Below, one piece after another: positions 2,072 through 33,548 of a stretch of 64,000 nt of DNA. Made by a program: the position numbers and the translations under genes. Each line of letters begins with the position of its first letter. The stretch's first letter is position 1. Source of the stretch: a virus. Lineage: Duplodnaviria > Caudoviricetes. The stretch lies in IMG/VR virus record IMGVR_UViG_2879636102_000002, positions 15,566 to 79,565 of that record; one strand, given 5' to 3'. Under the pieces are notes generated by a model, which was not told where the DNA came from, ran no database searches, and saw only the letters and a program-made list of their open reading frames with translations.

Positions 2072-4645
2072 TTAACATACCTGATTTTTATTTTTCAGAG
2101 CTTTGAGGAAAGTTCCAATCGAGCTTTTGAAAGCGAACATATCCGGAGTTTGGGAATCTGCTTTTATTTCGCTGAATTTCTTTTTCAATGAATCTCTAAA
2201 AGCAGCGATATTATTGAGTGCATCAGATAGCCTTGCAAGTTCTGTTTCCAGTGCACTCTCACCTTTCGTTGCTATAATAGAAGCTGCTAGTTCTTTCGCT
2301 TTTCCTTCATTGAGATCCGTAATTGTATCACCAAGGAATTTCTGAATTGGTTTTTGAATTGCTGTTAGTAAGTTTTCGAAGCCTGCTGAATTTGCCCTCG
2401 CATTGTCCTCGCCACCTGCATATTTCACAGCCTCCTGTTCTACTTCAGATCTACCGGTAGAGTCCACGTTCCCGAAGGAAAAATTCTGTGCTTTGAGACT
2501 ATCAATATACGACTTAACTTGGTTAGGTGAAATTCCTTTGCCTTTGTTTTGATTGTACCATGAGAACGCCTTTCTTTGGATAGTAGGTGAGGGATTCCCT
2601 CCTTCATCGATCCCGTTTTTTGCGATAACGATTGCCAATGACTCAGGAATCGATTCCCTTTTCTCTTTGGATCCATCGTTTGCTTTATCTGATGTACGGA
2701 TGTTCTTTTTCGCATCGGTTCGGAGAAGGTCTTGAAGTTCTGGAATTAAATTGTTGAGTGCAATGGTTCCCTTGACATATTCCGTAGACTCTCCTGTTCT
2801 TTCTGAAATTTCCTGTACGGACTTACCTTGCTCGATAAGTTTCGCGTAGGCTTTTGCATCATCCAACCGTTCCACTTCACGCTTGTTTTTGTTCGCTGAG
2901 ACCTGCGCGAGTAAACGATCAGATTCAGAATTGTATTTTTCCTCAATTACATAGATTGGGGTATCTTTTGGAAGTTTTGCTTCCGAAATAAGTTCTTTTA
3001 CGGCTGTGAAACGATGATGTCCATCGACTACTGTCAGTTTACCGTTTTTATCTCTATCAACTTTAATTGGAGAACCAGGATCGAAACCTTTGGCAAGAAT
3101 TGAAGATTTGATTCCTTCTATAACTTTTCGATTATAATTTTTCTCGTCAGTGTATTGCTCAATTGTAGAGATATCTGAAGCAGGAACTTCTTTTAATTTA
3201 TTTGAAGTCTTCCCGGACACAGATTGTCGATAGACATGTTTGTCTCCAGAAATGCGAAGTGCTTGCGATCTTATCTTAGGGCTTTTTTTTTTAATTTCAG
3301 AAATTGCTTTTATTGCACCATCTTTCTTAGCATTATCATTCCCTTTCATTGCTTTGGAACGTGCATCAGGATCGAGTGCTTGTTTTTCTTTGACGTAATT
3401 CGAAATTGCTTTCTTGTCTACGTTCCCTTTAGCATCAACTGGAAATGTGTCAGGTGCATCTACCTTGTATAATGCTTCAAATGCGACTTTCTCTAGATCG
3501 CTAAGTGTTTTGAAACCATCACGCACCTGTTTTTCTTTCATTGCTGATCTTAATTCAGAACGGGCTTTTTCAATTTCCGTCCTAAACTCATCCTCACTGA
3601 GGCTTTTATCCTTCCGAATGGTATCAATTTTATTCCAGGATTGAGCGATTTTAGCTTCAATCGGGTCCTGCTCGTTGACTAATTTGGATAGTTCCTTAGT
3701 ATCAGTTTGGGATTTAGGTAAGCTGGAATTCTTTTTCAAACTATCCAGCAATTTACCCAATTCATCTTTTTTGGATTTTGGGATTTCGCTCCAATTGGAA
3801 ATACCTTGCTCTCCGAGACTTTCAATAGAGTGCTTTGCCTGTGACAAAACTTGTTTTGGATCTTTTTCGGAATAAAATTTTTCAGCTCCTGATCCTTGAG
3901 ACCAAATCCATTTATCTTCCGTAGGTTTATAAAAAAAACTCACTTCCTTCCCACTTTGTGAAAGGTATTTGTATTTTGTTGCGTTTTTTACTTCTGAAGT
4001 TTGCTCTTTGGTGAATCCAAGTTTCTCCAAATTATTTACAATTTCTTGAGAGGATCCCTCCCCATGTTTCTCATTTGAATCAGTATACTTACTTGCTATG
4101 AATTGCATGAGCTTCAGATTCCATTTTTTCCCATCCTGAAATTTATCTGCCTGCTCTTTGACCTTTTCCTTTGGAGTTTTTTCCTGTTTCTCTTTGGTGA
4201 CGACATCGATGTCGTCACCAATCTCTTCTTTTGGTTCAGCAGTTTCTTTTGTAGGCTCGGTTTTTTTTGCCTTAAATTTTGTATCCCATTTGGTTTTGTT
4301 TGCTAAATATTCTGCTAGGTGAGAGGAGAAATCCTGTTTTGAGACGGGTCCAACTTCCTTAGTTATTGCATCCAAGTTCTCTTTGTATTCCGATTCAATC
4401 TTTGCATTGATTTCCGTCGGCTTGACTCCGAAAAAACTTGCAACCTTGCTCCAAATAGAAGGCTCTTTCTGGCCTTCCTTTTTCGGTACTTGTTTTTTGT
4501 GATCTCGATCATACGCTTCTTTTGTGTACCAATAACGATAACCACCTTTCGCCTTTGGTTCTCGCTTGTAGTATTTTACATTCGTTCCTTGTGAGCCTTT
4601 GCTCCCTTTAAGGAAATTTAATATGATTGCAAGATTTTGATTCAT
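2072..4645 (-). CDS. Large polyvalent-type protein with ParB/Srx-like domain (putative head-packaged protein)
   Basis: GFDPGSPIKV...VVDGHHRFTAV is a ParB-N motif, followed by an HTH (KSVQEISERTG). C-terminal QTPDMF is clamp-motif-like. Start moved to ATG 4645 after a late-motif variant. Confidence 0.7.
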   Translation of the reverse strand: MNQNLAIILNFLKGSKGSQGTNVKYYKREPKAKGGYRYWYTKEAYDRDHKKQVPKKEGQKEPSIWSKVASFFGVKPTEINAKIESEYKENLDAITKEVGPVSKQDFSSHLAEYLANKTKWDTKFKAKKTEPTKETAEPKEEIGDDIDVVTKEKQEKTPKEKVKEQADKFQDGKKWNLKLMQFIASKYTDSNEKHGEGSSQEIVNNLEKLGFTKEQTSEVKNATKYKYLSQSGKEVSFFYKPTEDKWIWSQGSGAEKFYSEKDPKQVLSQAKHSIESLGEQGISNWSEIPKSKKDELGKLLDSLKKNSSLPKSQTDTKELSKLVNEQDPIEAKIAQSWNKIDTIRKDKSLSEDEFRTEIEKARSELRSAMKEKQVRDGFKTLSDLEKVAFEALYKVDAPDTFPVDAKGNVDKKAISNYVKEKQALDPDARSKAMKGNDNAKKDGAIKAISEIKKKSPKIRSQALRISGDKHVYRQSVSGKTSNKLKEVPASDISTIEQYTDEKNYNRKVIEGIKSSILAKGFDPGSPIKVDRDKNGKLTVVDGHHRFTAVKELISEAKLPKDTPIYVIEEKYNSESDRLLAQVSANKNKREVERLDDAKAYAKLIEQGKSVQEISERTGESTEYVKGTIALNNLIPELQDLLRTDAKKNIRTSDKANDGSKEKRESIPESLAIVIAKNGIDEGGNPSPTIQRKAFSWYNQNKGKGISPNQVKSYIDSLKAQNFSFGNVDSTGRSEVEQEAVKYAGGEDNARANSAGFENLLTAIQKPIQKFLGDTITDLNEGKAKELAASIIATKGESALETELARLSDALNNIAAFRDSLKKKFSEIKADSQTPDMFAFKSSIGTFLKALKNKNQVC

Positions 4646-4660
4646 GGGGAAGGACAAAGG
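4646..4660 (-). promoter_or_regulatory. Late-gene motif variant CCTTTGTCCTTCCCC abutting ATG
   Basis: Variant of CCCTTGTCACTTCCC directly before ATG 4645. Confidence 0.6.
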
Positions 4661-4696
4661 AATGGATCCCAATGAAAGTCAATTCTTTTCAGGATA

Positions 4697-4725
4697 GACC
4701 ATAGCGGAAATAGTTCGCTATGGTC
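4697..4725. terminator. Stem-loop after the 739-aa gene
   Basis: 10-bp inverted repeat gaccatagcg/cgctatggtc overlapping the stop codon; poor U-tract. Confidence 0.5.
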
Positions 4726-6931
4726 ATTGGCCAGGCAATTCCGCGCCATGCCTTACAAGAGAAGCAATGTCATCCCTAGTCATAGATTTATCACTTTGTA
4801 AGAGTTGAGCGACTCGGTAAATCGTTCCCTTGACTTCTAATTTTCGAAGTGCATTGGCGTTTCCTTGCTTCTCTGCCATCGCTATTTGAACATCAATTAG
4901 AGAAACGTTTTTCTGTAGCTTCTTAGAATCGAGAAGGGAAGCATCCCTTACATTTTCAAAAATTTGTGAATCTGTTAAGGTTTCGGGTTTATTGATTTTC
5001 CCAAGTCGTTCCGAATCGGATTTGAACTCCCGCATTACTTCATGATAAATATCATCTCTTTCTTTCTTGAGTTCGCTACTAAGATGGCCGAGTTTAATAT
5101 GTTTTTTCCTGTTTTCCTTTAGTGCAAACAAATACTTTTTGTTTTTAAGTTTGTTTGCATAAACCATAATCGCTTCTGTTGCAAGATTTTTGTTCTCTAA
5201 GTCATCCACTCTTTTCTGTTCTTTCGAAGTGAGTTTAAGTTTGGCTTCCGATTTTATTTTTTTAACTGCTCCTTTAAGTTGACCTTTGGATGACATTAGG
5301 TTATTCAATTTTTCAGAAGCTTGGATTTTGGCTTCACCGGTTTTATTTGAACTACTCTGATTGGTTTTGATTAAATTGATGGATTTGATTGCATCGGGAA
5401 TTTTCCCTTGTTTTAATGTATTTGCGGTCTTCTCCAACTGATTACCAATTTTCTCTCCTTTCTTAATCCCTTTAGAAAGAGAATCTATAGCACTCGCTCT
5501 TTCCTTATATTTTGGATATTTTTCAAGAAGTGCGGGGTATTCTCGTAATACTTTTACAGGAATTTTAATTCCATTTTGCATGGCTTTTTCGGTAGCTTGC
5601 GAATGTTCTTCTTTGGACATACCTGCTTTTTTTGAAGTTGTTTGATGTGCAGCCTTGTTCTCGCTCTCACCAATCATTCGCCATCCATTTGATTCTTTCC
5701 GATATTTATTCCCATCAGACCATGTTCTAATTTCCCCAACCTGAGCGAGTTTTCCTTTATTGAAGGGGAGCAATTTATCAATGAAATGCTTTTTACTTGA
5801 TTTTGCAAAAGCTAGATCTGCGGCCAAAAATAGAAAAATACTTCCTGAAGGGAGCATAACTTTTAGATGACCATCAATCTTATCCAAAACTTTCGCTAGG
5901 TGGCCTCGATTTACGCGTCCATCTATTGGTCTCTCAATCCTAACGATATCACCTGGTTCGGCATTTTTAATATCAAATGCCTCGTTTCTCTTCTCTGGCT
6001 TCATTTTAGAAATTCTCTGTTTGTTTCTCTCTTTCGCAAGTTGCTCGAACTCCTTCCATCTTTCAAGTGCCTCAACAGCTTTCTGTTCGTAAGTTTTATT
6101 TTGACCAGAATTTGAATCTACATTTGATTTTCGTTTATCATTTGAGTCTTGAGAAGGAGTACTGGTCTGCTTGTTACTGGAGACTTCTACCCATCCATTG
6201 TCGGTTTTACGATGCTGCTTCCCATCGGACCAAGTACGAGTTTCACCTACTTGGGCTTTATTACTTTTTACGAAAAAGTTTTTTAAAGAGGATTTAATAA
6301 TCACTGCTTTTGCTTTCTTGGTGGTATCAGCTTTCTCTAACCATGTTCTAAATTGATCCAAAGTCATGGACTGGATATCGCCTAATCCTTTCCAACCAGG
6401 AGTATAGTTTGCTAAATATCCTTCTTTTGCTTCTTCCAAAGAATCGAATCCAAGCATGACTTTATGCTCATCGAAAATTCCGGATGAAGGCTTGATTTGA
6501 TTGATTATGAAAACTAGTTCCGATTTTATGTTTGGACCAATAAAGCAATCGATATGATCACCGTCTTTTCCAAGAGTCCTTTTGAAATAGCCATAATGGT
6601 GAACCATTTTATTTTTCCATTCTTTGCCATTGGAATCTTTTCCACATCTATACGTTCCCTTGGGATTTTCGATGGAAATATCGAATCCTTGAACTTTGAC
6701 GTGGGCTTTTTTATAGTTCCCTGCTTGTTTTTGAGAATGAGTAGGATTGGAATTATAATCTTCTTTTGAAATTTTAAGATGAGATTTTTGGAAAAATTTT
6801 CCCTTGAGAGATTTTATATATTCTTTGAAGTTTTTGCCTCGGATAGATTTGGAAAAAGGATCTTTCTGAAGCGCTGCTCCCCCAGTCAAATTTCCTATGT
6901 CTGTATTAACTTGGCTATTTGCAGTGAGCAT
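4724..6931 (-). CDS. Polyvalent protein with InPase (inorganic-pyrophosphatase-like) domain and two short beta repeats
   Basis: GNYKKAHV..GFDISIENPKG..HYGY..DGDHIDCFIG..FDEHKVMLGF matches the polyvalent-protein InPase domain. Repeats AQVGETRTWSDGKQHRKTDNGW / AQVGEIRTWSDGNKYRKESNGW. ATG 6931 preferred over TTG 6943. Confidence 0.8.
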   Translation of the reverse strand: MLTANSQVNTDIGNLTGGAALQKDPFSKSIRGKNFKEYIKSLKGKFFQKSHLKISKEDYNSNPTHSQKQAGNYKKAHVKVQGFDISIENPKGTYRCGKDSNGKEWKNKMVHHYGYFKRTLGKDGDHIDCFIGPNIKSELVFIINQIKPSSGIFDEHKVMLGFDSLEEAKEGYLANYTPGWKGLGDIQSMTLDQFRTWLEKADTTKKAKAVIIKSSLKNFFVKSNKAQVGETRTWSDGKQHRKTDNGWVEVSSNKQTSTPSQDSNDKRKSNVDSNSGQNKTYEQKAVEALERWKEFEQLAKERNKQRISKMKPEKRNEAFDIKNAEPGDIVRIERPIDGRVNRGHLAKVLDKIDGHLKVMLPSGSIFLFLAADLAFAKSSKKHFIDKLLPFNKGKLAQVGEIRTWSDGNKYRKESNGWRMIGESENKAAHQTTSKKAGMSKEEHSQATEKAMQNGIKIPVKVLREYPALLEKYPKYKERASAIDSLSKGIKKGEKIGNQLEKTANTLKQGKIPDAIKSINLIKTNQSSSNKTGEAKIQASEKLNNLMSSKGQLKGAVKKIKSEAKLKLTSKEQKRVDDLENKNLATEAIMVYANKLKNKKYLFALKENRKKHIKLGHLSSELKKERDDIYHEVMREFKSDSERLGKINKPETLTDSQIFENVRDASLLDSKKLQKNVSLIDVQIAMAEKQGNANALRKLEVKGTIYRVAQLLQSDKSMTRDDIASLVRHGAELPGQ

Positions 6932-6942
6932 TTTATATTGCA

Positions 6943-6967
6943 AAGGCAGGATGTTAAGTCCTGCCTT
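6943..6967 (-). terminator. Hairpin terminator/attenuator after major capsid gene
   Basis: 9-bp stem aaggcagga/tcctgcctt with 7-nt loop and a short T-run. Confidence 0.65.
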
Positions 6968-6979
6968 ATAATTTCAAAC

Positions 6980-8533
6980 CTATACGAGTGTAGTAGGTAA
7001 GTTCTTAATTAAATAGAATCTCTTTGGTTGTAAAACCGCAAGACCACCATACCATTCGACCATACCCGCTAGTTTTCTTTGATAAACTGCGTTCGGTGAG
7101 AACTTGGTTTGTAACAAAGGCAACATACGCAACATTTGGTAGGTTCGCTTCTGGTCGAGAGCAGATCTTGAATTGAAATCACCCACAACACCTTCTGTGC
7201 AACCTGGGCGCCAAGCATTGAGATCAACATACACAGTGGTAGGGTTTGCAGATTTCACGATTCTTTCTGTCAATCGGAAGTCTCCAGAACCAGGTGATGT
7301 CTCACGGAAAATTTGGAAATAAGTAGCCGCATACCCACTTCCAGCAGGTGTAATTGTTACTGTGATTGATTTACCTGCGCTCATTGCACCAGAAGTTACA
7401 ATCGCACTTGGAGCAGAACGTCCAGATTTGTTACAAGCAACCACTCGATAACTTACTCCAGCATCAACACCAGAAGAATTTTTGGTATCTTTCGGAAGCC
7501 ACTCAGAACCCAAAACTGGGCCACCGGATACTGCTAACGCAATGCTCGGTGCATCAGGAGCTAGAGAATTTGTTTTCCCAGATACTTTGTTACCATTGGC
7601 ATCTCTATAAGTTGGCAATTCAACTAGATGACGGTTCATCCAAAGATCAGTTTTAAATTCCAGCCTCTTATCTTTAAGTGGAGCACCAACTAAACCTGGG
7701 ATATTGTATCCAATGTCTGCCATAGATCCGTTATTCGGTTGGGTAAAAAATTCTTTGGATTCAGTGTAGTATGTATCCAATACGTTTTTAACACCATCAT
7801 GGAGCCAAAATTCGTTTACCATACCAAAGTTTGTTCTGATATTCACTGCTAATTCTTTAATGATTTTAATTTCCGGAAAACCACCGCGAGCATCATAAAC
7901 TTGTCCAGCATTCTTAAGTTCAGTTACAAAACCATCGAATTCAAGTGGATTGATAGCCTTCTCAGCATACCATGCACCATAAGCAAGAGTTTGCATAATT
8001 CGGTTAATCGCACCTTGAACTTGGATCGCTTCTGGATCATAAGAACCTGTGTCTTGGATATCCAAAACCTTAGATACTGCATATCCTTCCGCGAGGAAAG
8101 AAACCGTTTTTGAGATTCTCTTGATGGAAACATCTTTGAATTCTGCGTCGTCAACTTCACCTACGAAAGAGAAATCGCCATTGCCACCCCAATCGAGAAT
8201 TTGACCAAACACGTTTAGAGTCGATTTGGTATCTCGATAGAACATAGTATTCAAGAAGTTATATTCGTCTGAATCCTGTGCTAAGAGAACCATCTCTTCG
8301 TCCAAATTGTGCATAGTTGTCGCAGCACCATTTGTGAGAGCAGTAACGTCGGTAATACCGTCGCTATTTGCGTTAAATGACTTCATGAAGTTTCTGATTT
8401 CTTCTAGCGAACCGAATGATGGGGTTAATAACCCGAGCATAACAGTCTCAGTGCCTCCAAGATGGAGGAGGCCAATGCAGAAGAGAATTGTTGAAACAAC
8501 ACCAATCAAAGTGAATTTTAAGTTGAGTTTCAT
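6980..8533 (-). CDS. Major capsid protein (SPO1/Twort-like) with hydrophobic N-terminal propeptide
   Basis: FMKSF..TDVTALTNGAA..LD, PLEFDG and a C-terminal YGGLAVLQPKRFYLIKN pattern. Follows protease and scaffold; TAATG coupling to scaffold. Confidence 0.85.
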   Translation of the reverse strand: MKLNLKFTLIGVVSTILFCIGLLHLGGTETVMLGLLTPSFGSLEEIRNFMKSFNANSDGITDVTALTNGAATTMHNLDEEMVLLAQDSDEYNFLNTMFYRDTKSTLNVFGQILDWGGNGDFSFVGEVDDAEFKDVSIKRISKTVSFLAEGYAVSKVLDIQDTGSYDPEAIQVQGAINRIMQTLAYGAWYAEKAINPLEFDGFVTELKNAGQVYDARGGFPEIKIIKELAVNIRTNFGMVNEFWLHDGVKNVLDTYYTESKEFFTQPNNGSMADIGYNIPGLVGAPLKDKRLEFKTDLWMNRHLVELPTYRDANGNKVSGKTNSLAPDAPSIALAVSGGPVLGSEWLPKDTKNSSGVDAGVSYRVVACNKSGRSAPSAIVTSGAMSAGKSITVTITPAGSGYAATYFQIFRETSPGSGDFRLTERIVKSANPTTVYVDLNAWRPGCTEGVVGDFNSRSALDQKRTYQMLRMLPLLQTKFSPNAVYQRKLAGMVEWYGGLAVLQPKRFYLIKNLPTTLV

Positions 8534-9264
8534 TAGTTTCCCCCTTTGGATGAACTTTTTAAAAATTCCACAACAGCTTCAGTTTGACGTCCGGACGATT
8601 TGAACGTCTGCAAGTCACCGAGAGCTAATTTTTTATCCTGGACACCTTTGGAAATAAGCTGGATAATTTCAGCTCTTCCATATTGTGCAGGGATCCCGGA
8701 AGTATCAAGAACCGGTTTCTTTGAATCTACCGGTTGTTTTAATACTTTCCCGAGTTCTGATTTTAAGAATGCGATTTCCTTTTTGATTTCTTGGTTTTCT
8801 TTTGCGAATACAGCATTCTCTTCAATTAAGGAAGCGATCGCCATTTCATGCGTTTCTGCGCTTTTAACAGCCATTGCTGTTGATTTTGCAAAAGCCACAA
8901 AGTCTGGGTCCATCGCCTTGTTCCCACCTTTCTGGATATCACTTTCTGGATCTGAGCCAGGTGCTGGTTCTTCACCACCTTCATCACTCAACCCTTCAGA
9001 GATAATTCCCCAAATTTCCGCGCTGTCTTCTTCAGAAATTCCATTCGTTTTACAGTAAGCCTTGATAGCCGATTCTTCGACTGCAACCTCACCTGATTCA
9101 ATCGCTGACTTCAATTTATCTAAAAATTCATCAGAGATACCTTCTCCTGCTCCTGTTCCACCATCGTCAGCACTAGGAGGTGGCGGTGTATCCTCTGCTC
9201 CTGTACTGGATTTGGTAAACGAGGAGACAAGTCCCATAAACTGTTTCTGCCAATCCTTATTCAT
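8533..9264 (-). CDS. Putative capsid scaffolding protein
   Basis: Acidic low-complexity N-half plus coiled coil, many KS/KG motifs, located between protease and MCP. Confidence 0.7.
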   Translation of the reverse strand: MNKDWQKQFMGLVSSFTKSSTGAEDTPPPPSADDGGTGAGEGISDEFLDKLKSAIESGEVAVEESAIKAYCKTNGISEEDSAEIWGIISEGLSDEGGEEPAPGSDPESDIQKGGNKAMDPDFVAFAKSTAMAVKSAETHEMAIASLIEENAVFAKENQEIKKEIAFLKSELGKVLKQPVDSKKPVLDTSGIPAQYGRAEIIQLISKGVQDKKLALGDLQTFKSSGRQTEAVVEFLKSSSKGGN

Positions 9265-18642: not shown

Positions 18643-18655
18643 GGGAAGTGACAAG
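18643..18655 (-). promoter_or_regulatory. Late-gene motif CTTGTCACTTCCC abutting portal ATG
   Basis: Exact core copy; no Shine-Dalgarno between motif and ATG. Confidence 0.75.
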
Positions 18656-24600: not shown

Positions 24601-27600
24601 CTAACGATCGGTAACCCCAAAATTTATATCCCTATTATCCTCTCCATCATTTTGTGAAATCTCTTCCGATGCTCCATAATCACCGGAAAGTGCTATTGAT
24701 GAAAAATTCATTGCGATACCAATACTTGATAATACTATTATTGGAATAGATACATCAAATACAACTATCATAACCACTAGAGTCACTATCTGTATTATCA
24801 AAGAGAGAATTGCTTCAGAAGAAAAAGCTTGTTTCAACCCATTAAAAAATGCTTTACTATCAGCGTAAGGCCTATCTAGTTTATCGACTTTGTTACCAGT
24901 GCGATAGCCAGCAGCCACAAACCTTAACACATCAGGTTTATCTTTCCAAAGCATATATCCCATAAAAGCCATTTTCCAAGATTTTCCAATATGTATTCGC
25001 TCTTCTTTTTTACCTTGGATGTCATTGTACGACCCGCCAGCTTTCTTTCCCATAGTAAATCCCATAAATAGATTTCGAACTTTGTCGAGATCATTTTCTG
25101 CTGGCAGCAAGTAATAAGCAGCCAGCGCATATTGTAAAGCCTTTGAAATATGCGGCTTACCCAAATGAGATGCATTTTGACCGAAAGTTTTTTCTATATA
25201 AGATTGTCTTCCTCTCTCGTTCCCTCTATAGGTCCGAAAAGCTGCCGATGTTAGAAGTAACCGATCACTTTCATTCATACCTTCACTAAGCATATATACG
25301 ACAACTGCCGAAAAGTAGGGGGATTGTCTTCCATAACCAGTCGGATCATTGTATTTAATTGGGTTTCCATTTGTATACATATAACGGTTCAATCCGTTGA
25401 CTTGTTTTGAGAATAGCTTTTTGTCTCCCGTTAAAAATCGGCCAATAAAAGGATCATAATATCTTGCCTTCATATAGTATAATCCAGATTCTTTGTCTTC
25501 CGTTTGACCAGCATATTTAATTTTACTAATATCAGGTCCGCCGCTATCAGTTCTGTGAATCAATCCATAAGGTTTGTAAGCAATCCTGGATCTCCCCGTC
25601 CAATCACCACCAGACAAAGGATTCCCTTTCGAATCCGATAAAAAACTAACGGAACCTAAATGGTCAGCATGTTGGAAAGAAATACCCGAAAATGAATTTG
25701 ATGAAATAGGAGGCACTATTGTGCCTGTCCCTGGAAAGTAATCGTTTCCTTCATCATTAACAGAAGGGGCGGAGTCAGAGACATGCGTTGGGAACAATGT
25801 TAGAGGTTTCTCATCCCCATTGCCTCCGATGCCAAGAAACGAACAATTCTCAACGCCAATCATAAAAGAAAACAACAATATTACATTTGCATACCGCATA
25901 ACAGGCATAATATAAATCGAAAAATAAGGTCTTTTTTGTTTATGAACGAAAATGAATAAAAATCCAAGAAAAGCGAATTGAAGAGAATACGATCCGAATT
26001 TGATATTTTCTCTAGTTAAGTGTTTTCTTAGCGGCTTAAATATCAAAGAATCAAATTTATTTTTTCGATATACTTCGCAGTCCATCTTAGTTTTAGAACA
26101 ATCAAATACAGAGAAATTCAAACTTAGGATTTTGTCCCAAGGGGTTAGAGAACTAAAATTTTCATCCCTCAAAAATTGTACATCAGGAACTGCTATTTGA
26201 GCCAGAGGCTCCCCTTTTAATCCTTTAAGATATAAAGTTGCAGATTCTGGAATGCCCTCCTCCCTTGTAATTTCAAACGCATCCCCAAATAAAGTATAAT
26301 TAATCTGTTTTCCATTGCCCACATCTTTTTTGATTCGATTACCAGAATGATCGTAGTAATAGCGAATGGAAGTGCCGCCCGCAGTATTGATACTTGTTAA
26401 CAAATTGTTAGAATCATAAGAATGAACATCTCCATTCCGATTAACCATATTTCCATTTGAATCATAGGAGTAATGAAAAGTTCCTATTTGAGGAGATCTG
26501 GCTTCAGTGACTAAATGAGGTTTATTTAAATTTTCATATTTAAAAGTAACTTCTCCTCTTTTTAGTAAATTACCATCCGCTGAATATTCATATAGTTCCT
26601 CACCATATTTTCCAACTGACTTAACAAGGCGGTTCAGTGAATCGTACTCAAAATTTTGAGTCCTGTCTTCTCGGTTTTTATCCTGTATCTTGCTTATATT
26701 TCCAGCTGGATCATACTCATATTTCAAGTTTTGTTCCAGAAATCCATCCGCCAGTTTGGTTCGAAGCCCAGTTAACCTCTTAAATTTTTTATCAATTTCA
26801 ATAGTTGATTCAACACCGTTCCCAGTAATTTTCTTTATAACAAAGCGATCCTCTTCTAAAAAAGGTCCTTCATATTTCACCAGTAGCTGGTCCACTGAAT
26901 TACCATCAGCCGAATCTAAAGTCATTTTATTCAAATGCCCTCCAGATCCGTAAGAATAATGAACGACTGTTCCTTCTGGATACCGAATAAGTGTTGGGTT
27001 ATTATTAGTATCATACTCCGACTCGACAAACAAATTCACATCATCCATCATTTTCTTTTGTCGGATTACATTACCTCGCAAGTCATAGTCCATCAATGTT
27101 GTAAGGTTTCCATCATTCACTTGGGTCAATCTTCCTACTGGATAGGACTGTGATGTTGCACCACCAACATCATAAACATATGAAATTGTTTTCCCACCGG
27201 TCATTTGAGATATGATTCTTGATAAACCGTCATAGTTAAAATCAGTTACCGTTCCATCCGACTTAATCGTTCTCGATAGGCGTCCGAGCATGTCATATTT
27301 CATCTCGATGTTACCGGAAGATTTGTCAGTTTGACTAACTTTCCTTCCCCTGGAATCATACTCATAACTTATTTGATTGCCCGACGGATCAGTAATTTTT
27401 GCAATATTCCCCCGAGCACTATAGCTCATCGTATGAGTAGAACCATTCATCGTTCTTCGGATTTCTTGACCCAATATATTCTTTTCAATCTCTATCGTGT
27501 GAACTAGCTCGCCTGTAGCCGAAAATATACTCGAAGTAGTAACCAATTGGTTTGGAGAGTATGAAATAGAGATTCTTTCTCCTTTCGAATTTATAATCCC

Positions 27601-30600
27601 TATAACTCTATCATAGCCATCATAATTATACTCTTCCCAATCATCTTCCATCAAACCCGAAATAATAGGATTATATTTACGGTAAAGTCGTCCAAAAGAA
27701 TCATATACCATTCGTTCGGTTAGATTGGCTGATTCATTTAACTGAGTTATCCTACTTTGAAGTTTCCCTTCATGATTCATTATTTCCGTGATGACCGAAT
27801 ACCCACCTTCCGAGTTACGCGACTGCTTGACGACCTCTAGCTTCAGTTCCTCTTTCTTATATGTAAAACTTTGTTTAAGGTTAGGTGCAGAGTCACCGGG
27901 AAGTGTTTCGCTCTTTTCATTCAAAAAAGGATCGTACGATCTCTTTAAGCTCGCTCCGTTTGGCGAAATTTCTTCAATTAATGAATCTGTAAGTAAGTCA
28001 TATCTTTTCTCTGTTCTATGACCTAAACTATTCATTTGCGATACAACATTGATTCCAGAATCTGAATCATATTCAGTTATCACTTCACCGATACCTGGAA
28101 CATTTTTGACCGTATTTCTGCCGAGCATGTCATAACTCATTGTCACTTTCGATTGGTCTGGACTTCCAGAAAATGACACAACTTCAGCAACCAAACTGTT
28201 ATTGGTATAATTAAACTCTTCATCTGAAACTAATTCAGATTGCAAATAACTTTTTATTCTTTTAGGTCTTCCAATAAAATAGTTATCAAAAGAAGTATTA
28301 TTATCAAAATTTGATTCTTCTTCTTTTACCAATATGTTATTGGCGAATTTTTTTTGAGACAAAGCATTGCCATATATGTCATACCCTGCTTCGTATTCTT
28401 CTTTTTTATAAAGATAAGAGTCTATGTAGGATTCTGAAACCTGCGAATTTCTTAATACTAATTCAACACCAAAAGGATTTTTGATTTGATAATTATAAGT
28501 TAAGCTTTTTGCAAGGGTCCCATCCGAATAATAACTCTTTATCGATTTTTCGAGACCGGCAAATTGGGGTCCTGCTTGGTTATATATTATTTCTTTTCTT
28601 AGATTATGTAATAGATTAGTTTCAATTACTTTTTCAAACCCATAATATGCCCGGGAAAATAAATCACCAAGGTGAATTCTAAAATTTTGATAATCATATC
28701 TATCTGTTATGACTTTATCTGCACTTTTCGATTCTATCTCATAAACCTGTTGTTTTGATATTGGAACTGAAAGCTTTGGGTAGGAGCCATTATTAAACTG
28801 GATAGCATTTTGAAATTCTTCTGTCTTTTTATATCGAATTTCAGTTTCAAACCACATCCCATCTGATAGTTTTACAAGCTTATCATGTGAATTATTCAGA
28901 ACTACCGGAGTAACACTTAAATTTCCTCCTTCTGGAGTATCGTAAAGAGCTAATAAGCTAAGGAGACTTAGAAGTAAGCCTGGTGACATTGTTGTTTTGG
29001 GAGCTTTAAATAAGGAAACAAAAGCATCAAACCCCCTTGCATGCATCGCAAAATAATTCTGACTTCTGCGCGTACCATCAACATAGTCCTGAATTGCAGG
29101 GTAATAACTTAAGTAAGGTACATTTAGTAAAAATGCGTTTTTATCAGCCTTTAGATGAATTAGTTCTACTCTTCCATCCTTGTTTAAGTCCATTGCCCCA
29201 TAAAACGAATCAGCTTCTGCCAATGTACCTCCACTGACAAAGCCTTGTCCGTTCCCATAATTGACAGCTACTCTCGATCCATCAAAAGCTAGTAAGTCGA
29301 CCTTCCCGTCTCCATTCACATCAGCAAATGTTTTAGTTTTAAGAATTTCATCTCCAAAAACTTCTCCCTGGTAAACCATTCCGGAAAGATAACCTTGATT
29401 AACTCCTTCCGCAAAACTTTTCCCTAAATTTAAATAAGTATAAAATAATCCATTGGGTAGTAATACGCAGAAATCAGGTCTACCGTCACTATTGATATCT
29501 GCAAGCCATCTGTTGTATCCTTCCTCTTTAATATTCCCATTGCCCGTGTAGATTCCACCCATTCGATACTCAATGGAATTACCGGAGCTTAAGAATATTT
29601 TTCTTATAACTACCTCGCCGTTTAAAATATGTACAAACTCAGGCTTTCCATCAGAATCAAAATCAATAAACTGCCCCATTTTTTCATTTATAAAGATTGG
29701 GCCAATGTCTATATGATTTTCGCCAGAAAAAGAAGTACCTTGTGAGTAACTGATTGAAATCGTTGTATCATTAATCTTTTTTATATAATCTGAACGTCCG
29801 TCTCCGTCCATATCAACAAGACCCCCCTTCCAGGTTAAATCAGGAGGACTAAATAGAAAATCAACGGGCGGGGTAACTAAACTTAAATTTGATATCAGAT
29901 ATGGTTCAGTATAATAGCCATTCCGCGCGAAGGTAACTAATACATTTTGACCATTCGAATATGCTAAGTCTACGTTTCCATCTCCATCAACATCCCCCCA
30001 AGACATTGTAGAAAAACTATTATAACCTATACCATGCAAATTCGGAGATACCGTGGATTCATCCATACTTGTTGTTGGATTTTTAATTGTGACAATTCTG
30101 AACGAACCTTCATCTTCATTACCTACAAGTCGAACTCCTTCCAAGCTTCCATCACCATCCGTATCACCGAAAGTTAGAAGATTATTTGGACTTCTGGTTC
30201 CTGTCATACAAGGAAGCCACCACGTATTCTGAAATTGACTGCAAAGCAAACCATACCTTGCTTTTTCGGTCTGGCAGACCAATAGACTCGCTGGGTTTGG
30301 CATATTACATACCATAGTGTTGAATGCCAAACAGTTTAGTGTACCTAGGTTGCATTCAAATTTATCTTGCAATGGCACTCGTGAAACCGCAAAAAGATTT
30401 GGAATTCGTTTCTCAACTTTTGATCCATATACAGATTGTGTTCTCTGGCTATAGGTTAATTGAATATCAAAGTATTTGCCATCTCCAAAGTTATTTGATT
30501 CTTCGCGAGAAATCGCAATTAATTGTGCTTCTCCTAATAGATTTGTAGAATAATCAAATTTATATAAACGGACAGTTACTCCAGCTACTTTTACTCTAAT

Positions 30601-31320
30601 CTCGCTTATTAATTGGTTATCTTGCGATTGAATAAAATTCGTATATTTCTTTGCGTTATCGTCATTGTCTCGATATTCGAATGAGATTTCTCTGTTTTGG
30701 TATGCAATTTTTGTAACAAATATACCTGCACTGCTATTCGGTTTCCCATATGTTACAGTATATCCAACACCAAAAGTGTCCTTTACGCTCGTTAGCCGCC
30801 ATCTTTGGACCTGATCTTGGCTATACAATGAATTTTCAGTTTGATACTGATCGTTGCCCCCAAATGTATAAATCAACCCGTTTTTGTCTTTCGCTTGCCA
30901 AGTTTTCGAGTCAAGTTTCTTGAATATAAATAATGATTCAGGTTTAGTTCGATAAATATTTAATGTATTCGAGGGGACTAGCTCTCCACCTAGTGTAGAT
31001 GTAAAGCGCTCGATCCCATGATCATACGATCCGCGAACATCTCTTTCTATGTAATGATTAAGATTTAAATCCCATCCTTTTCCTAATAACCCAGTTGGTA
31101 ATTCCGAATTATACGAAAGTTGCAAATTAGGTGCTATTTCTTTTAGGGCAACAGGCAGCTCAATCGGGAAAGTAGTAATAGCATTCCCGAACTGATCAAC
31201 CGAGATTGTTGGTAAATTTTGAGGAATTTTTTCGTTCCAAAAATCCATCAAGGTAAAACTTGAAAACGAAAAAAACGCAAAAGATAATAGTAGTATATTC
31301 TTTAATTTTGATAATTTCAA
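24601..31320 (-). CDS. Rhs/YD-repeat protein with SpvB-like and FG-GAP repeats and C-terminal membrane-active domain
   Basis: Signal peptide; PNLQLSYNS..GLLGKGW (SpvB-like); D.DGDG repeats; YD repeats; core YYMKARYYDPFIGRF...YTNGNPIKYNDPTG. Confidence 0.92.
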   Translation of the reverse strand: MKLSKLKNILLLSFAFFSFSSFTLMDFWNEKIPQNLPTISVDQFGNAITTFPIELPVALKEIAPNLQLSYNSELPTGLLGKGWDLNLNHYIERDVRGSYDHGIERFTSTLGGELVPSNTLNIYRTKPESLFIFKKLDSKTWQAKDKNGLIYTFGGNDQYQTENSLYSQDQVQRWRLTSVKDTFGVGYTVTYGKPNSSAGIFVTKIAYQNREISFEYRDNDDNAKKYTNFIQSQDNQLISEIRVKVAGVTVRLYKFDYSTNLLGEAQLIAISREESNNFGDGKYFDIQLTYSQRTQSVYGSKVEKRIPNLFAVSRVPLQDKFECNLGTLNCLAFNTMVCNMPNPASLLVCQTEKARYGLLCSQFQNTWWLPCMTGTRSPNNLLTFGDTDGDGSLEGVRLVGNEDEGSFRIVTIKNPTTSMDESTVSPNLHGIGYNSFSTMSWGDVDGDGNVDLAYSNGQNVLVTFARNGYYTEPYLISNLSLVTPPVDFLFSPPDLTWKGGLVDMDGDGRSDYIKKINDTTISISYSQGTSFSGENHIDIGPIFINEKMGQFIDFDSDGKPEFVHILNGEVVIRKIFLSSGNSIEYRMGGIYTGNGNIKEEGYNRWLADINSDGRPDFCVLLPNGLFYTYLNLGKSFAEGVNQGYLSGMVYQGEVFGDEILKTKTFADVNGDGKVDLLAFDGSRVAVNYGNGQGFVSGGTLAEADSFYGAMDLNKDGRVELIHLKADKNAFLLNVPYLSYYPAIQDYVDGTRRSQNYFAMHARGFDAFVSLFKAPKTTMSPGLLLSLLSLLALYDTPEGGNLSVTPVVLNNSHDKLVKLSDGMWFETEIRYKKTEEFQNAIQFNNGSYPKLSVPISKQQVYEIESKSADKVITDRYDYQNFRIHLGDLFSRAYYGFEKVIETNLLHNLRKEIIYNQAGPQFAGLEKSIKSYYSDGTLAKSLTYNYQIKNPFGVELVLRNSQVSESYIDSYLYKKEEYEAGYDIYGNALSQKKFANNILVKEEESNFDNNTSFDNYFIGRPKRIKSYLQSELVSDEEFNYTNNSLVAEVVSFSGSPDQSKVTMSYDMLGRNTVKNVPGIGEVITEYDSDSGINVVSQMNSLGHRTEKRYDLLTDSLIEEISPNGASLKRSYDPFLNEKSETLPGDSAPNLKQSFTYKKEELKLEVVKQSRNSEGGYSVITEIMNHEGKLQSRITQLNESANLTERMVYDSFGRLYRKYNPIISGLMEDDWEEYNYDGYDRVIGIINSKGERISISYSPNQLVTTSSIFSATGELVHTIEIEKNILGQEIRRTMNGSTHTMSYSARGNIAKITDPSGNQISYEYDSRGRKVSQTDKSSGNIEMKYDMLGRLSRTIKSDGTVTDFNYDGLSRIISQMTGGKTISYVYDVGGATSQSYPVGRLTQVNDGNLTTLMDYDLRGNVIRQKKMMDDVNLFVESEYDTNNNPTLIRYPEGTVVHYSYGSGGHLNKMTLDSADGNSVDQLLVKYEGPFLEEDRFVIKKITGNGVESTIEIDKKFKRLTGLRTKLADGFLEQNLKYEYDPAGNISKIQDKNREDRTQNFEYDSLNRLVKSVGKYGEELYEYSADGNLLKRGEVTFKYENLNKPHLVTEARSPQIGTFHYSYDSNGNMVNRNGDVHSYDSNNLLTSINTAGGTSIRYYYDHSGNRIKKDVGNGKQINYTLFGDAFEITREEGIPESATLYLKGLKGEPLAQIAVPDVQFLRDENFSSLTPWDKILSLNFSVFDCSKTKMDCEVYRKNKFDSLIFKPLRKHLTRENIKFGSYSLQFAFLGFLFIFVHKQKRPYFSIYIMPVMRYANVILLFSFMIGVENCSFLGIGGNGDEKPLTLFPTHVSDSAPSVNDEGNDYFPGTGTIVPPISSNSFSGISFQHADHLGSVSFLSDSKGNPLSGGDWTGRSRIAYKPYGLIHRTDSGGPDISKIKYAGQTEDKESGLYYMKARYYDPFIGRFLTGDKKLFSKQVNGLNRYMYTNGNPIKYNDPTGYGRQSPYFSAVVVYMLSEGMNESDRLLLTSAAFRTYRGNERGRQSYIEKTFGQNASHLGKPHISKALQYALAAYYLLPAENDLDKVRNLFMGFTMGKKAGGSYNDIQGKKEERIHIGKSWKMAFMGYMLWKDKPDVLRFVAAGYRTGNKVDKLDRPYADSKAFFNGLKQAFSSEAILSLIIQIVTLVVMIVVFDVSIPIIVLSSIGIAMNFSSIALSGDYGASEEISQNDGEDNRDINFGVTDR

Positions 31321-31856: not shown

Positions 31857-33548
31857 TTAATAACCTCGCCTTCTTAATTGTTCTCTTCGAAGCTGCTCAA
31901 TAGACTTTCCAATTGTAACTTGCGATTCTTGATGCAACCCTGCTTCCCGTTCCCTTGCCTTCGCTAACTGTTCTGGTGTGACTATACTTATCATATTCCC
32001 CATTTGTTCTACAATCAATCGATGAGCCATCTCCAATGCGTCAGGACCATCCAGTTTCTTGTAAGGGAATTCGTTTAGCATTTCAAAAAGTAAATTGGAA
32101 TCGGATCTGAGTAACATGAGGCCAGTTGCAATTATAGTTTGCAATGCCCCTTCGATTCGTTTGATCTTATCTCCAGTGTTTGGGATCCCAACCATTGGAA
32201 CAATGATTCGATCTGTGGGTGATAATCCTTGCCCGTTGTTTGGGTTTACACACAGTTCATTCCAGTCTTCTAAATGCCGTTTAAACGCGTCCAGGAAGTA
32301 TTCCTGCCCTCCACTGGTCTCAACACCCGCAACTGTCCATGGAAACGCTCTGAGAGCCTTTACGAGGTCAATTTGGATCTGATCTGGAGGTCTTCTAGCA
32401 ATGTCTGAATAGAGTTCGTAGAATTTTCCCTGTGGAGAAAGTCCAACACCGACAATTGCGGAATAATCTGATCTCTGAGTCTTCCCAAGCGAAAGATCCA
32501 CTGCCAATCCAAGAGTCCATCCTTGAAATGATTCCGGCCTAACAAATTCGTAAGTTTGAATTCTACCTTTGAATTTCTGATCGATCTCTGCGAGTATGAC
32601 GTTCTGCCTTTCTCTTGCGAAAGAGATTGGATCGACTTCTCTTTCCTTTAGAAGCATCGAGAGAGGTGCCCCGGCTTCCCAAGTAGAATACTCGGATCCA
32701 TCTGGACGAGTTCCAATGGCAGAGAATTTCTTACGATTCCAATCCCAATACTTTTTGGTATCGTTGTAGATAACTTCTCCTACGCAATTTGGTGAAAGAG
32801 TTGTGTAAGACAAAACTACATCGATACCCCATTGAGCTCCGAGCTTCAATGCCGCCCGATCGAACCAACGATATTTTTTTTGCATTCTGGAATCTGATTC
32901 AACGTCCTTCTCTTCATCCGGATCATCGACAATCAAAGCGTCTGGCCGATATTGTCTATACCGAGTTCCACGAATGGCATTAAGAAAGCCTTTCGCAATG
33001 ATCCTGGCACCTCCCCTGAAAACGATATCCAAATCATTCCAAGCAACATTCTGGCCTTTCTGATCTTTTGCAGGCCTTAGTTCAGGAAAGTCAGATACAA
33101 GCAGTTCGTTATCTTCACACTCATCCACAATCTTTTGGAGAAAACCTTTCGCCTGTGTGAGTGAGGCACTGACCATGATCACAAAATGCCAATCACGCCT
33201 AAGCACCAACCACATGACACCGCATAAAGAGAGAATGGTTGATTTTCCAAAACCTCGGGAGAGAGCTCGGATTATTTTCATTGGCCCCCTACCCTTCTTT
33301 CCGGCAAAGGCTTGTATGTCCTCTATCAATTCCAATTGCTGTTCCCCAAACTCAGTAGAGAAGTAGTGAGCAAAATAAGTATTGAGAAAGACTCGAAAAC
33401 TTTCTATGGCCTTTACTCTTCGTAAGGTGGCGGGATTCCCTTCTCCGTATTGTGCTTTTTGTTTTTCTAAAAATCGCTTGAGATAAATTTCAGCGACTTT
33501 GGCAGGATACCTTTTTAATTCCTTACGCAATTCCTCGATTTGGATCAT
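31857..33548 (-). CDS. terL: Terminase large subunit
   Basis: Walker A SRGFGKST, Walker B LIVDD, nuclease motifs AVDLS..DYSA and LDGPDA. Confidence 0.92.
   Translation of the reverse strand: MIQIEELRKELKRYPAKVAEIYLKRFLEKQKAQYGEGNPATLRRVKAIESFRVFLNTYFAHYFSTEFGEQQLELIEDIQAFAGKKGRGPMKIIRALSRGFGKSTILSLCGVMWLVLRRDWHFVIMVSASLTQAKGFLQKIVDECEDNELLVSDFPELRPAKDQKGQNVAWNDLDIVFRGGARIIAKGFLNAIRGTRYRQYRPDALIVDDPDEEKDVESDSRMQKKYRWFDRAALKLGAQWGIDVVLSYTTLSPNCVGEVIYNDTKKYWDWNRKKFSAIGTRPDGSEYSTWEAGAPLSMLLKEREVDPISFARERQNVILAEIDQKFKGRIQTYEFVRPESFQGWTLGLAVDLSLGKTQRSDYSAIVGVGLSPQGKFYELYSDIARRPPDQIQIDLVKALRAFPWTVAGVETSGGQEYFLDAFKRHLEDWNELCVNPNNGQGLSPTDRIIVPMVGIPNTGDKIKRIEGALQTIIATGLMLLRSDSNLLFEMLNEFPYKKLDGPDALEMAHRLIVEQMGNMISIVTPEQLAKAREREAGLHQESQVTIGKSIEQLRREQLRRRGY

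Follow-up and report, generated by a model that had tools for sequence, protein, structure and literature searches.

A putative capsid-targeting propeptide resembling the mature major capsid protein N-arm in LE1-like Leptospira phages

The window analyzed here is a 64,000-nucleotide stretch of viral DNA (IMG/VR record IMGVR_UViG_2879636102_000002, positions 15,566 to 79,565) that is part of an LE1-like Leptospira prophage (or plasmid) and sits in contig C11 of a 4.19-Mb Leptospira genome. On its minus strand lies a head module in the order prohead protease, scaffold, major capsid protein (MCP), hairpin, cargo gene, and then a ParB-like gene. Our subject is the first 22 residues of the cargo protein, here called the tag, and their likeness to the predicted N-terminal arm (N-arm) of the mature MCP. 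The features of the module and its surroundings are listed below in window coordinates; in a motif such as F-x-K/S, the slash after K marks the predicted cut.

9266..10099, minus strand: prohead (capsid maturation) protease, 277 residues, from the gp21-like fold of its model
8533..9264, minus strand: scaffolding protein candidate, 243 residues, from position, composition, and phrog_3660
6980..8533, minus strand: MCP precursor, 517 residues (phrog_752, LE1 gp24)
8378..8389, minus strand: predicted MCP maturation site F49-M50-K51/S52, from phage 812 homology
8315..8380, minus strand: predicted mature MCP N-arm, residues S52-T73 (first 22), SFNANSDGITDVTALTNGAATT, the segment copied by the tag
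6943..6967, minus strand: hairpin with a 9-bp stem and 7-nt loop, between the MCP stop and the cargo start
4724..6931, minus strand: cargo gene, a 735-residue polyvalent protein comprising tag, basic linker, type I inorganic pyrophosphatase-like (InPase) domain, and two further regions
6866..6931, minus strand: tag (the first 22 residues of the cargo, MLTANSQVNTDIGNLTGGAALQ), which is in register with residues 1-22 of the mature MCP
6782..6865, minus strand: basic linker, cargo residues 23-50, with predicted protease sites F26-S-K28/S29 and F47-Q-K49/S50
6335..6736, minus strand: InPase domain, cargo residues 66-199, from Pfam
6263..6274, minus strand: predicted protease site F220-V-K222/S223, directly past the InPase domain
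5798..5809, minus strand: predicted protease site F375-A-K377/S378 in the cargo
2072..4672, minus strand: ParB-like gene, 866 residues, in the same variable island as the cargo gene
16972..18654, minus strand: portal protein, 560 residues, with one F-R-K-S at residue 52 (phrog_12 and others)
31857-33548: large terminase subunit, further along from the head module

The likeness between tag and arm was first pointed out in an earlier note on this DNA, whose coordinates, sequences, and count of identities on the minus strand we reproduced. Positions 8321-8371 encode ANSDGITDVTALTNGAA, residues 55-71 of the 517-residue MCP open reading frame (ORF), and positions 6872-6922 encode ANSQVNTDIGNLTGGAA, residues 4-20 of the cargo protein numbered from the ATG at 6931; the two peptides are identical at 10 of 17 positions without a gap. 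A single BLASTP comparison of the MCP with the cargo protein returned this match, at E 0.37, as the sole notable similarity of both proteins, in agreement with the earlier note, which had seen no other, and the window pair taken alone is borderline. Ten identities in 17 were reached in none of 300 shuffles of the whole cargo protein and in none of 3000 when its first 25 residues were shuffled. The six frames of the window hold no third copy of tag or arm, the runners-up scoring 8/17 and 7/17, and just one other, unrelated 22-mer in the six frames of the 4.19-Mb genome scores 10/22 against either peptide. The match is convincing because relatives share it.

By sequence, the MCP belongs to the Herelleviridae-type HK97-fold capsid proteins (phrog_752, "major head protein," E 1e-115; SPO1 Gp6.1, E 2.4e-17), and it is 98.6% identical to LE1 gp24. 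A profile of seven MCPs matches the MCP of Staphylococcus phage 812 (5lii_P, 463 residues) at E 4.9e-31 and also 9row_B (439 residues), which is the 463-residue chain minus its first 24 residues and starts at S25. K24/S25 of the phage 812 protein aligns with K51/S52 here, and across 19 MCPs, including those of a distant Leptospira phage group, K51, A55, and N56 do not vary and F53 hardly does. Homology with phage 812 thus predicts that the MCP is cut at F-M-K/S. The earlier note had drawn the boundary after FMKS; the predicted cut falls instead between K51 and S52 (FMK/SFNANS), so that cargo M-L-T aligns with mature MCP S-F-N and, given the S25 start of 9row_B, cargo Met1 is in register with mature Ser1. 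The predicted mature MCP begins SFNANSDGITDV, the cargo protein MLTANSQVNTDI, and the cargo protein of the relative L009 MFNANSQGITDV. Position +2 is hydrophobic in tags and arms alike, and +5 is invariably Asn in both. From the established specificity of methionine aminopeptidase, the cargo initiator Met should be retained, because Leu or Phe occupies position 2. An AlphaFold2 model of the full MCP built from 19 sequences has a mean predicted local distance difference test (pLDDT) score of 49, its N-terminal 184 residues scoring below 50, and the retrieved portion of a paper on the phage 812 neck (PMC12886913) contained no passage on the MCP N terminus.

The MCP precursor has a second unusual feature at its own N terminus. 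Residues 1-31 (8441-8533, minus strand) include a hydrophobic, signal-peptide-like stretch, MKLNLKFTLIGVVSTILFCIGLLHLGG, for which AlphaFold2, at low confidence, predicts a helix spanning residues 6-22; a membrane-like helix would be unusual on a capsid precursor. The ORF start overlaps the scaffold stop codon by one base. The stretch is open and hydrophobic in all LE1-like MCP ORFs, and it is missing from the distant Leptospira group, whose MCP begins at the position of M32.

To compare the tag across relatives, we used the genomic neighborhoods of MCP homologues found in IMG/VR, GTDB genomes, and metagenomes, as well as LE1 itself. Eleven LE1-like lineages have sequence past the MCP gene (the window, LE1, L007, L009, L010, L011, L013, and L023-L026), with MCP identities of 63-99%; a twelfth, L008, stops within the MCP gene and was not counted. 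In 11 of 11 lineages, the tag stands at Met1 of the gene directly after the MCP. The cargo proteins start with the consensus M-[L/F]-x-[A/S/T]-N...G-x-T-D-h-x-x-h-x-x-G-x-A, a pattern that lines up with the MCP consensus [S/T/A]-[F/W]-x-A-N...G-I-T-D-V-x-A-L-T-N-G-A-A, and each tag is identical to the MCP arm of its own lineage at 10-19 of 23 aligned columns (12 identities in LE1). M1, N5, T10, G18, and A20 are invariant in nine aligned cargo N termini. When cargo residues 1-60 were searched against 5.8 billion proteins, the result was five further proteins of 642-1083 residues, all five tagged at the start, and no match among proteins of 30-403 residues that would place the tag on smaller proteins.

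The earlier note had said in advance that its proposal would fall if the tag were not conserved in orthologues or if the real start lay downstream of it. The tag is present in all 11 lineages and all five database homologues, and a downstream start is unlikely because the tag has been kept as protein while synonymous sites diverged. An upstream start is excluded by the stop codons that lie two codons 5' of the cargo ATG in L009, L010, and L011. An in-frame TTG at 6943, four codons 5' of the ATG, was rejected as a cargo start; it lies inside the hairpin, and relatives have stops there. As RNA, the 57-nt stretch containing the hairpin at 6943-6967 folds at -15.2 kcal/mol (z -3.0), and the equivalent site in LE1 is annotated "terminator." A consensus terminator scan did not call the hairpin, because a T-run is lacking.

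At the DNA level, tag and arm share 33 of 60 nucleotides in the window and 35 of 60 in LE1, and 5 of the 10 residues they have in common in the window use different codons. Judged from these comparisons, selection is acting on the tag as protein, not as DNA, and the likeness is not a recent duplication. In L009, the tag DNA (L009 8635-8700 versus 7156-7215) is identical to that lineage's own MCP gene at 55 of 60 nucleotides between unrelated flanks, an indication that the cargo gene recently received this segment from the MCP gene by gene conversion; this near-copy also means that MCP arm sequence can serve as a tag. Because conversion does occur, one might suppose that the likeness has no function and was simply left behind when the MCP gene and the cargo island next to it recombined or underwent gene conversion, and both the recombinational fluidity of this post-MCP island, with its variable domains, and the E value of the window pair by itself would fit that explanation. 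We consider it highly improbable, since the protein sequence is retained in 11/11 lineages and 5/5 database proteins despite the diverged synonymous sites (33/60, 35/60), always at Met1 with N5, T10, G18, and A20 invariant, whereas the linker beside it evolves much faster.

We next turn to the genes ahead of the MCP. For the 277-residue ORF, Pfam (E up to 10) and PDB sequence searches returned nothing, and the fold search alone identified it. Its AlphaFold2 model (mean pLDDT 79.7) retrieved T4 gp21 chains (5jbl) as the three best Foldseek matches in the PDB (E 3.7e-5 to 6.9e-5, probability 1.00, template modeling (TM) score normalized to the target 0.58-0.61), and the runners-up were herpesvirus proteases (E 0.015-0.1). 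By its modeled fold, the ORF is a prohead protease of the T4 gp21/herpesvirus assemblin type. H67 and S140, the candidate catalytic His and Ser, are invariant in 11 homologues. The 243-residue ORF between the protease and MCP genes is acidic in its N-terminal half, is coiled-coil-like in its C-terminal half, and matches phrog_3660; its position and composition suggest that it is the scaffold. Its K168-S169 pair is invariant in 12 homologues.

The tetrapeptide of the predicted MCP cut, F-x-K-S, occurs 21 times in the 71 ORFs of the window (20,051 residues). Eleven of these motifs fall in four adjacent genes (two in the protease, four in the scaffold, one in the MCP, and four in the cargo), and one more is in the portal. 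For these four proteins, which total 1,772 to 1,776 residues depending on the cargo start counted, composition predicts 0.57 motifs, corresponding to an about 20-fold enrichment (Poisson 3e-11) in a test that is post hoc because the motif was noticed in these proteins before counting. Neither the scaffold count of four nor the cargo count was reached in any of 2000 shuffles. The same concentration is found in 7 of 7 other LE1-like loci, which are homologous and not independent replicates; the MCP site does not contribute to the count there because it reads F-A-K-T or F-T-K-A.

Within the cargo protein, the motifs lie past the tag (26-29), at the linker end (47-50), past the InPase domain (220-223), and at 375-378. 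In LE1 gp25, they lie at 47, before an additional HAD-like domain; at 191, the junction of the HAD-like and InPase domains; at 364 (FLKS), past InPase; and at 519. In both proteins, no domain border is without the motif. A counterpart of F220-V-K222/S223 is kept in LE1 gp25 and in the related proteins P0011-P0015, and aligned relatives have [F/Y/M]-x-K-S at the linker end. This pattern suggests that the prohead protease processes the cargo as a polyprotein, which would put the cargo inside the prohead.

The motifs also bear on two other explanations of the tag. The cargo might be a permanent minor virion component whose arm-like N terminus is anchored in vacant N-arm acceptor sites, rather than bearing a transient propeptide; the portal vertex, which lacks a penton, could offer such sites in the shell around it. 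Such anchoring would suit the register with the mature, post-cleavage N terminus and not with the MCP propeptide, and the first post-tag cleavage motif is not universal; the name "tail protein" given to LE1 gp25 would fit as well, if it derived from virion analysis. However, the conserved [F/Y/M]-x-K-S at the linker end and the F-x-K-S motifs at domain borders argue that the enzymatic domains are cut off from the tag, and according to the sections retrieved from PMC5512222, enzymes such as the InPase, HAD-like, and Zeta-kinase domains characterize ejected effectors and not parts of the lattice, making permanent anchoring unlikely in our view.

Alternatively, the tag might serve the protease, as a prime-side recognition element, an exosite ligand, or a competitive regulator of MCP maturation. 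It mimics P1'-P20' of the MCP site, starting exactly at P1', on a protein that bears protease motifs. Nevertheless, no scissile bond precedes it, only Met1, with stops two codons upstream in L009-L011, and the four scaffold and two protease sites share F-x-K/S with the MCP site without any likeness to the MCP arm past the cut. Cleavage therefore needs no arm-like sequence, so protease recognition fails to explain the tag, and the arm-like sequence must serve another purpose. We regard a role for the tag in serving the protease as very improbable.

F-x-K-S is also found in a large SNF2-helicase-like (DarB-like) protein encoded upstream of the head genes in relatives (L007 34-1419, L009 56-2014, L010 275-1930, and L011 169-1344) and in LE1 (gp15, 1971 residues), with one to three motifs in its C-terminal part; this protein may be a second processed and packaged cargo without a tag. 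The window differs in the ORFs upstream of 12719-13669. Bordetella phage PHB04 (L055 1-7982) encodes a DarB-like methyltransferase, a Ulx-like protein, and a 1519-residue helicase directly upstream of protease, scaffold, and MCP, and the helicase begins MKPILFLKAS, with F-L-K-A near the N terminus. The F-R-K-S at residue 52 of the window's portal raises the possibility that the portal may also shed an N-terminal propeptide. Elsewhere in the window, a 2239-residue ORF (24601-31320, minus strand) matches only PHROG families without known function (phrog_10385, E 5.8e-281).

What stands behind the tag varies. The cargo protein is 85% identical to LE1 gp25, carries the InPase domain at residues 66-199 (Pfam PF18823, E 3.5e-56), and matches phrog_10089, "DarB-like antirestriction," among others. 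InPase stands alone behind the tag in the window and L011; HAD-like plus InPase in LE1 and, by sequence, in L009, L010, and L013; InPase plus a Zeta-toxin kinase domain in L007 and P0014; and HAD-like without InPase in L023-L026. Because one tag heads at least four domain architectures, it appears portable, as the earlier note had proposed. The InPase domain, the HAD_SAK_2-like and Zeta_toxin domains of relatives, and the location beside head genes place the cargo among the DarB-like polyvalent proteins (Iyer et al. 2017), in agreement with the matches to phrog_10089 and phrog_4272. The ParB-like 866-residue protein also matches phrog_4272, which spans the InPase region of the cargo as well, so the cargo and ParB-like genes look like a split polyvalent protein.

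A fusion of this kind is seen in the distant phage LalZ_80412, where InPase and ParB occur in one protein with FLKS just past the InPase domain, and the LE1-like cargo/ParB pair therefore looks like a split of such a fusion. Separately, a Zeta-toxin-like kinase (PF06414, E 1e-26) ends some tagged cargos, those of L007 (8578-11463) and P0014; in these, going by the sequences, a toxin-antitoxin-type kinase is apparently delivered from the phage head.

The tag could instead act after ejection or outside head assembly, either as an ejection or translocation leader through the portal-tail channel or as a signal to a host factor; the arm likeness would then reflect a common interaction with the portal channel. 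The N-terminal placement of the tag on a probable ejected effector is compatible with this idea, as is the presence of a portal gene with its one F-R-K-S. On the other hand, a tag removed at the linker sites could not guide the mature domains, and we find a post-ejection role quite improbable.

Together, these data lead us to favor a reading in which the tag, by mimicking the MCP N-arm, serves as the N-terminal capsid-targeting propeptide of a polyprotein that is processed inside the prohead; we assign this a probability of roughly 0.6. It builds on the observed similarity, register, conservation, varying cargo, protease fold, and motif enrichment, from which we infer packaging of the cargo, its cleavage, and its binding partner. 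The extreme N-terminal position beside the head module, found in 11/11 lineages and 5/5 database proteins, is that of a capsid-targeting signal, and the first 40 residues of DarB are, by eye, unlike the tag, so that we see no sequence relation to the P1 signal. The interpretation put forward in the earlier note is supported in part. Targeting is likely; packaging gains indirect support from the four copies in the cargo of the F-x-K-S motif otherwise concentrated in protease, scaffold, and MCP, and from the name "tail protein" for LE1 gp25; and docking of the tag at the binding sites of MCP N-arms is conjectural.

In mechanistic terms, the tag and basic linker (about 50 residues) would form a removable propeptide. 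Being the same peptide as the MCP N-arm, the tag would bind the partner of the N-arm during head assembly, and this binding would bring the polyprotein into the prohead. The MCP N-arm is the usual scaffold-binding element in other HK97-fold phages. Our ranking of candidate partners puts the scaffold as most likely, the shell next, and the portal last. Once inside, the prohead protease would cut F-x-K/S after the tag, at the linker end, and at each domain border, and the freed enzymatic domains could leave with the DNA at ejection.

A more elaborate version, possible but rather unlikely, is a self-timed loading cycle in which the tag is a copied maturation product that is caught and then released by mimicry of the MCP's new N terminus. 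The N-arm acceptor (a neighboring subunit, scaffold, or portal) would recognize a free N terminus with Asn at +5. In the prohead, MCP arms would still be capped by their propeptides and the acceptors empty, and only the ready "mature" N terminus of the cargo would fit; through occupied acceptors, the polyprotein would be tethered to the inner shell. Uncapping of the MCP arms by the protease would let them displace the tags, while simultaneous F-x-K/S cuts would free the enzymes into the lumen and tag peptides of about 28-49 residues would exit. Were this correct, the HK97-fold shells of this family would have in the tag a minimal loading signal that is portable.

Several observations count against the proposed targeting propeptide. 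The BLAST score of the window pair by itself is weak (E 0.37), the F-x-K-S enrichment carries the post hoc character and homologous loci noted above, and both the presence of the cargo in virions and its cleavage are predictions from sequence. The first post-tag site, FSK/S, is missing in L009, L010, and L023 and reads FSRS in LE1, and the LE1 depositors named gp25 a "tail protein." The ParB-like neighbor in the same island has neither a tag nor F-x-K-S. In the identity matrix, tags are not consistently nearest to the MCP arm of their own lineage and no clear covariation emerges; lineage-specific matching is not seen because MCP arms are nearly identical between lineages. A Leu-to-Val change in both peptides of L007 looked like covariation and was dropped as confined to one lineage.

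The tag's distribution weighs on the same side. About 30 loci represent a distant Leptospira phage group with MCP identities of 31-36%; in this group, no tagged gene follows the MCP, a 250-residue structural gene standing there instead. None of the 25 distant-group loci scanned has a second arm-like copy, and in six further loci the arm pattern itself was unmatched. One phage of this group has an InPase-ParB fusion elsewhere in its genome, with an unrelated N terminus. Bordetella phage PHB04, whose MCP is of the same family, has no arm-like N terminus among 16 neighboring genes, the best arm match there being 6/17, which is chance level. Within the loci surveyed, the mimicry thus appears to be an invention of the LE1 clade.

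How does the tag compare with known packaging signals? The T4 protease gp21 cuts at L/I-x-E. The cleavage motif inferred here is F-x-K/S, and we claim no relation of the tag to the sequence of the T4 capsid-targeting sequence (CTS). As described in the portions of PMC5694885 and PMC9024508 retrieved, the T4 CTS of IPI-III, Alt, and gp24 is a short N-terminal propeptide that directs proteins into the prohead and is removed by the protease; the cargo is ejected with the DNA, and the CTS is portable to foreign proteins. Its length is given as 10-20 residues (PMC5694885, in part). The LE1-type tag would resemble it as a putative short, N-terminal, portable prohead signal that is predicted to be protease-removable, and differs from the CTS described in those portions of PMC5694885 and PMC9024508 in that it copies about 20 residues of the MCP N-arm. 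In phage P1, according to the same excerpts of PMC9024508, the first 30 residues of DarB suffice to load a reporter into capsids, the Dar proteins have no consensus at their N termini, and there is no separate scaffold protein. By eye, the first 40 residues of DarB resemble neither the LE1-type tag nor the mature P1 MCP start SVAAEM (PMC9024508, in part). In common with P1, the putative signal stands at the N terminus of a large polyvalent anti-restriction protein of the DarB type, the cargo here matching phrog_10089.

Encapsulin cargo-loading peptides are likewise short, terminal, and portable, and they tether enzymes inside an HK97-fold shell; they are usually C-terminal, are not known to copy a shell segment, and work without a protease step and without DNA. 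The tag falls outside this class, being N-terminal, and the shell here is that of a tailed phage with portal and terminase genes. In phage HK97, the C-terminal tail of the gp4 protease is said (by Duda and colleagues in 2013) to target the prohead interior and bind the delta domain of the MCP. That tail too is a short terminal peptide that sends a nonshell protein into the prohead, but it is C-terminal and is not known to mimic an MCP segment. The cargo domain itself has other routes into heads. In the retrieved part of PMC5512222, InPase polyvalent proteins are predicted to be packaged and an InPase-portal fusion is noted. In phages of Pseudomonas, Escherichia, and Pantoea, our tblastn searches located InPase within proteins that bear the name "minor head protein" or "portal protein." These fusions to minor head (Mu F/SPP1 gp7-like) or portal domains have the same cargo domain and head delivery; they package by a whole structural domain, whereas the LE1-type cargo would do so by a peptide of about 20 residues copied from the MCP. 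In the open-access literature searched, to the extent that its texts were retrieved, we found no description of a packaging signal copied from the MCP N-arm. What would set this capsid-targeting signal apart from the known T4 and P1 signals is its origin as a copy of the MCP's own post-cleavage N-arm.

How phages choose the proteins that they pack beside their DNA is understood in only a few model systems such as T4 and P1, and the receptor of their signals is unclear. If the LE1-type signal copies one defined segment of the MCP, its candidate receptors are short-listed to the contacts of the N-arm and can be tested directly. The analysis further predicts that a "polyvalent" anti-defense protein is a polyprotein that the prohead protease cuts into separate enzymes at F-x-K/S. 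Genetic tools for Leptospira are few, LE1 being one of them, and the tag, with or without its linker, may provide a natural sequence of about 20-50 residues for loading proteins into LE1 particles.

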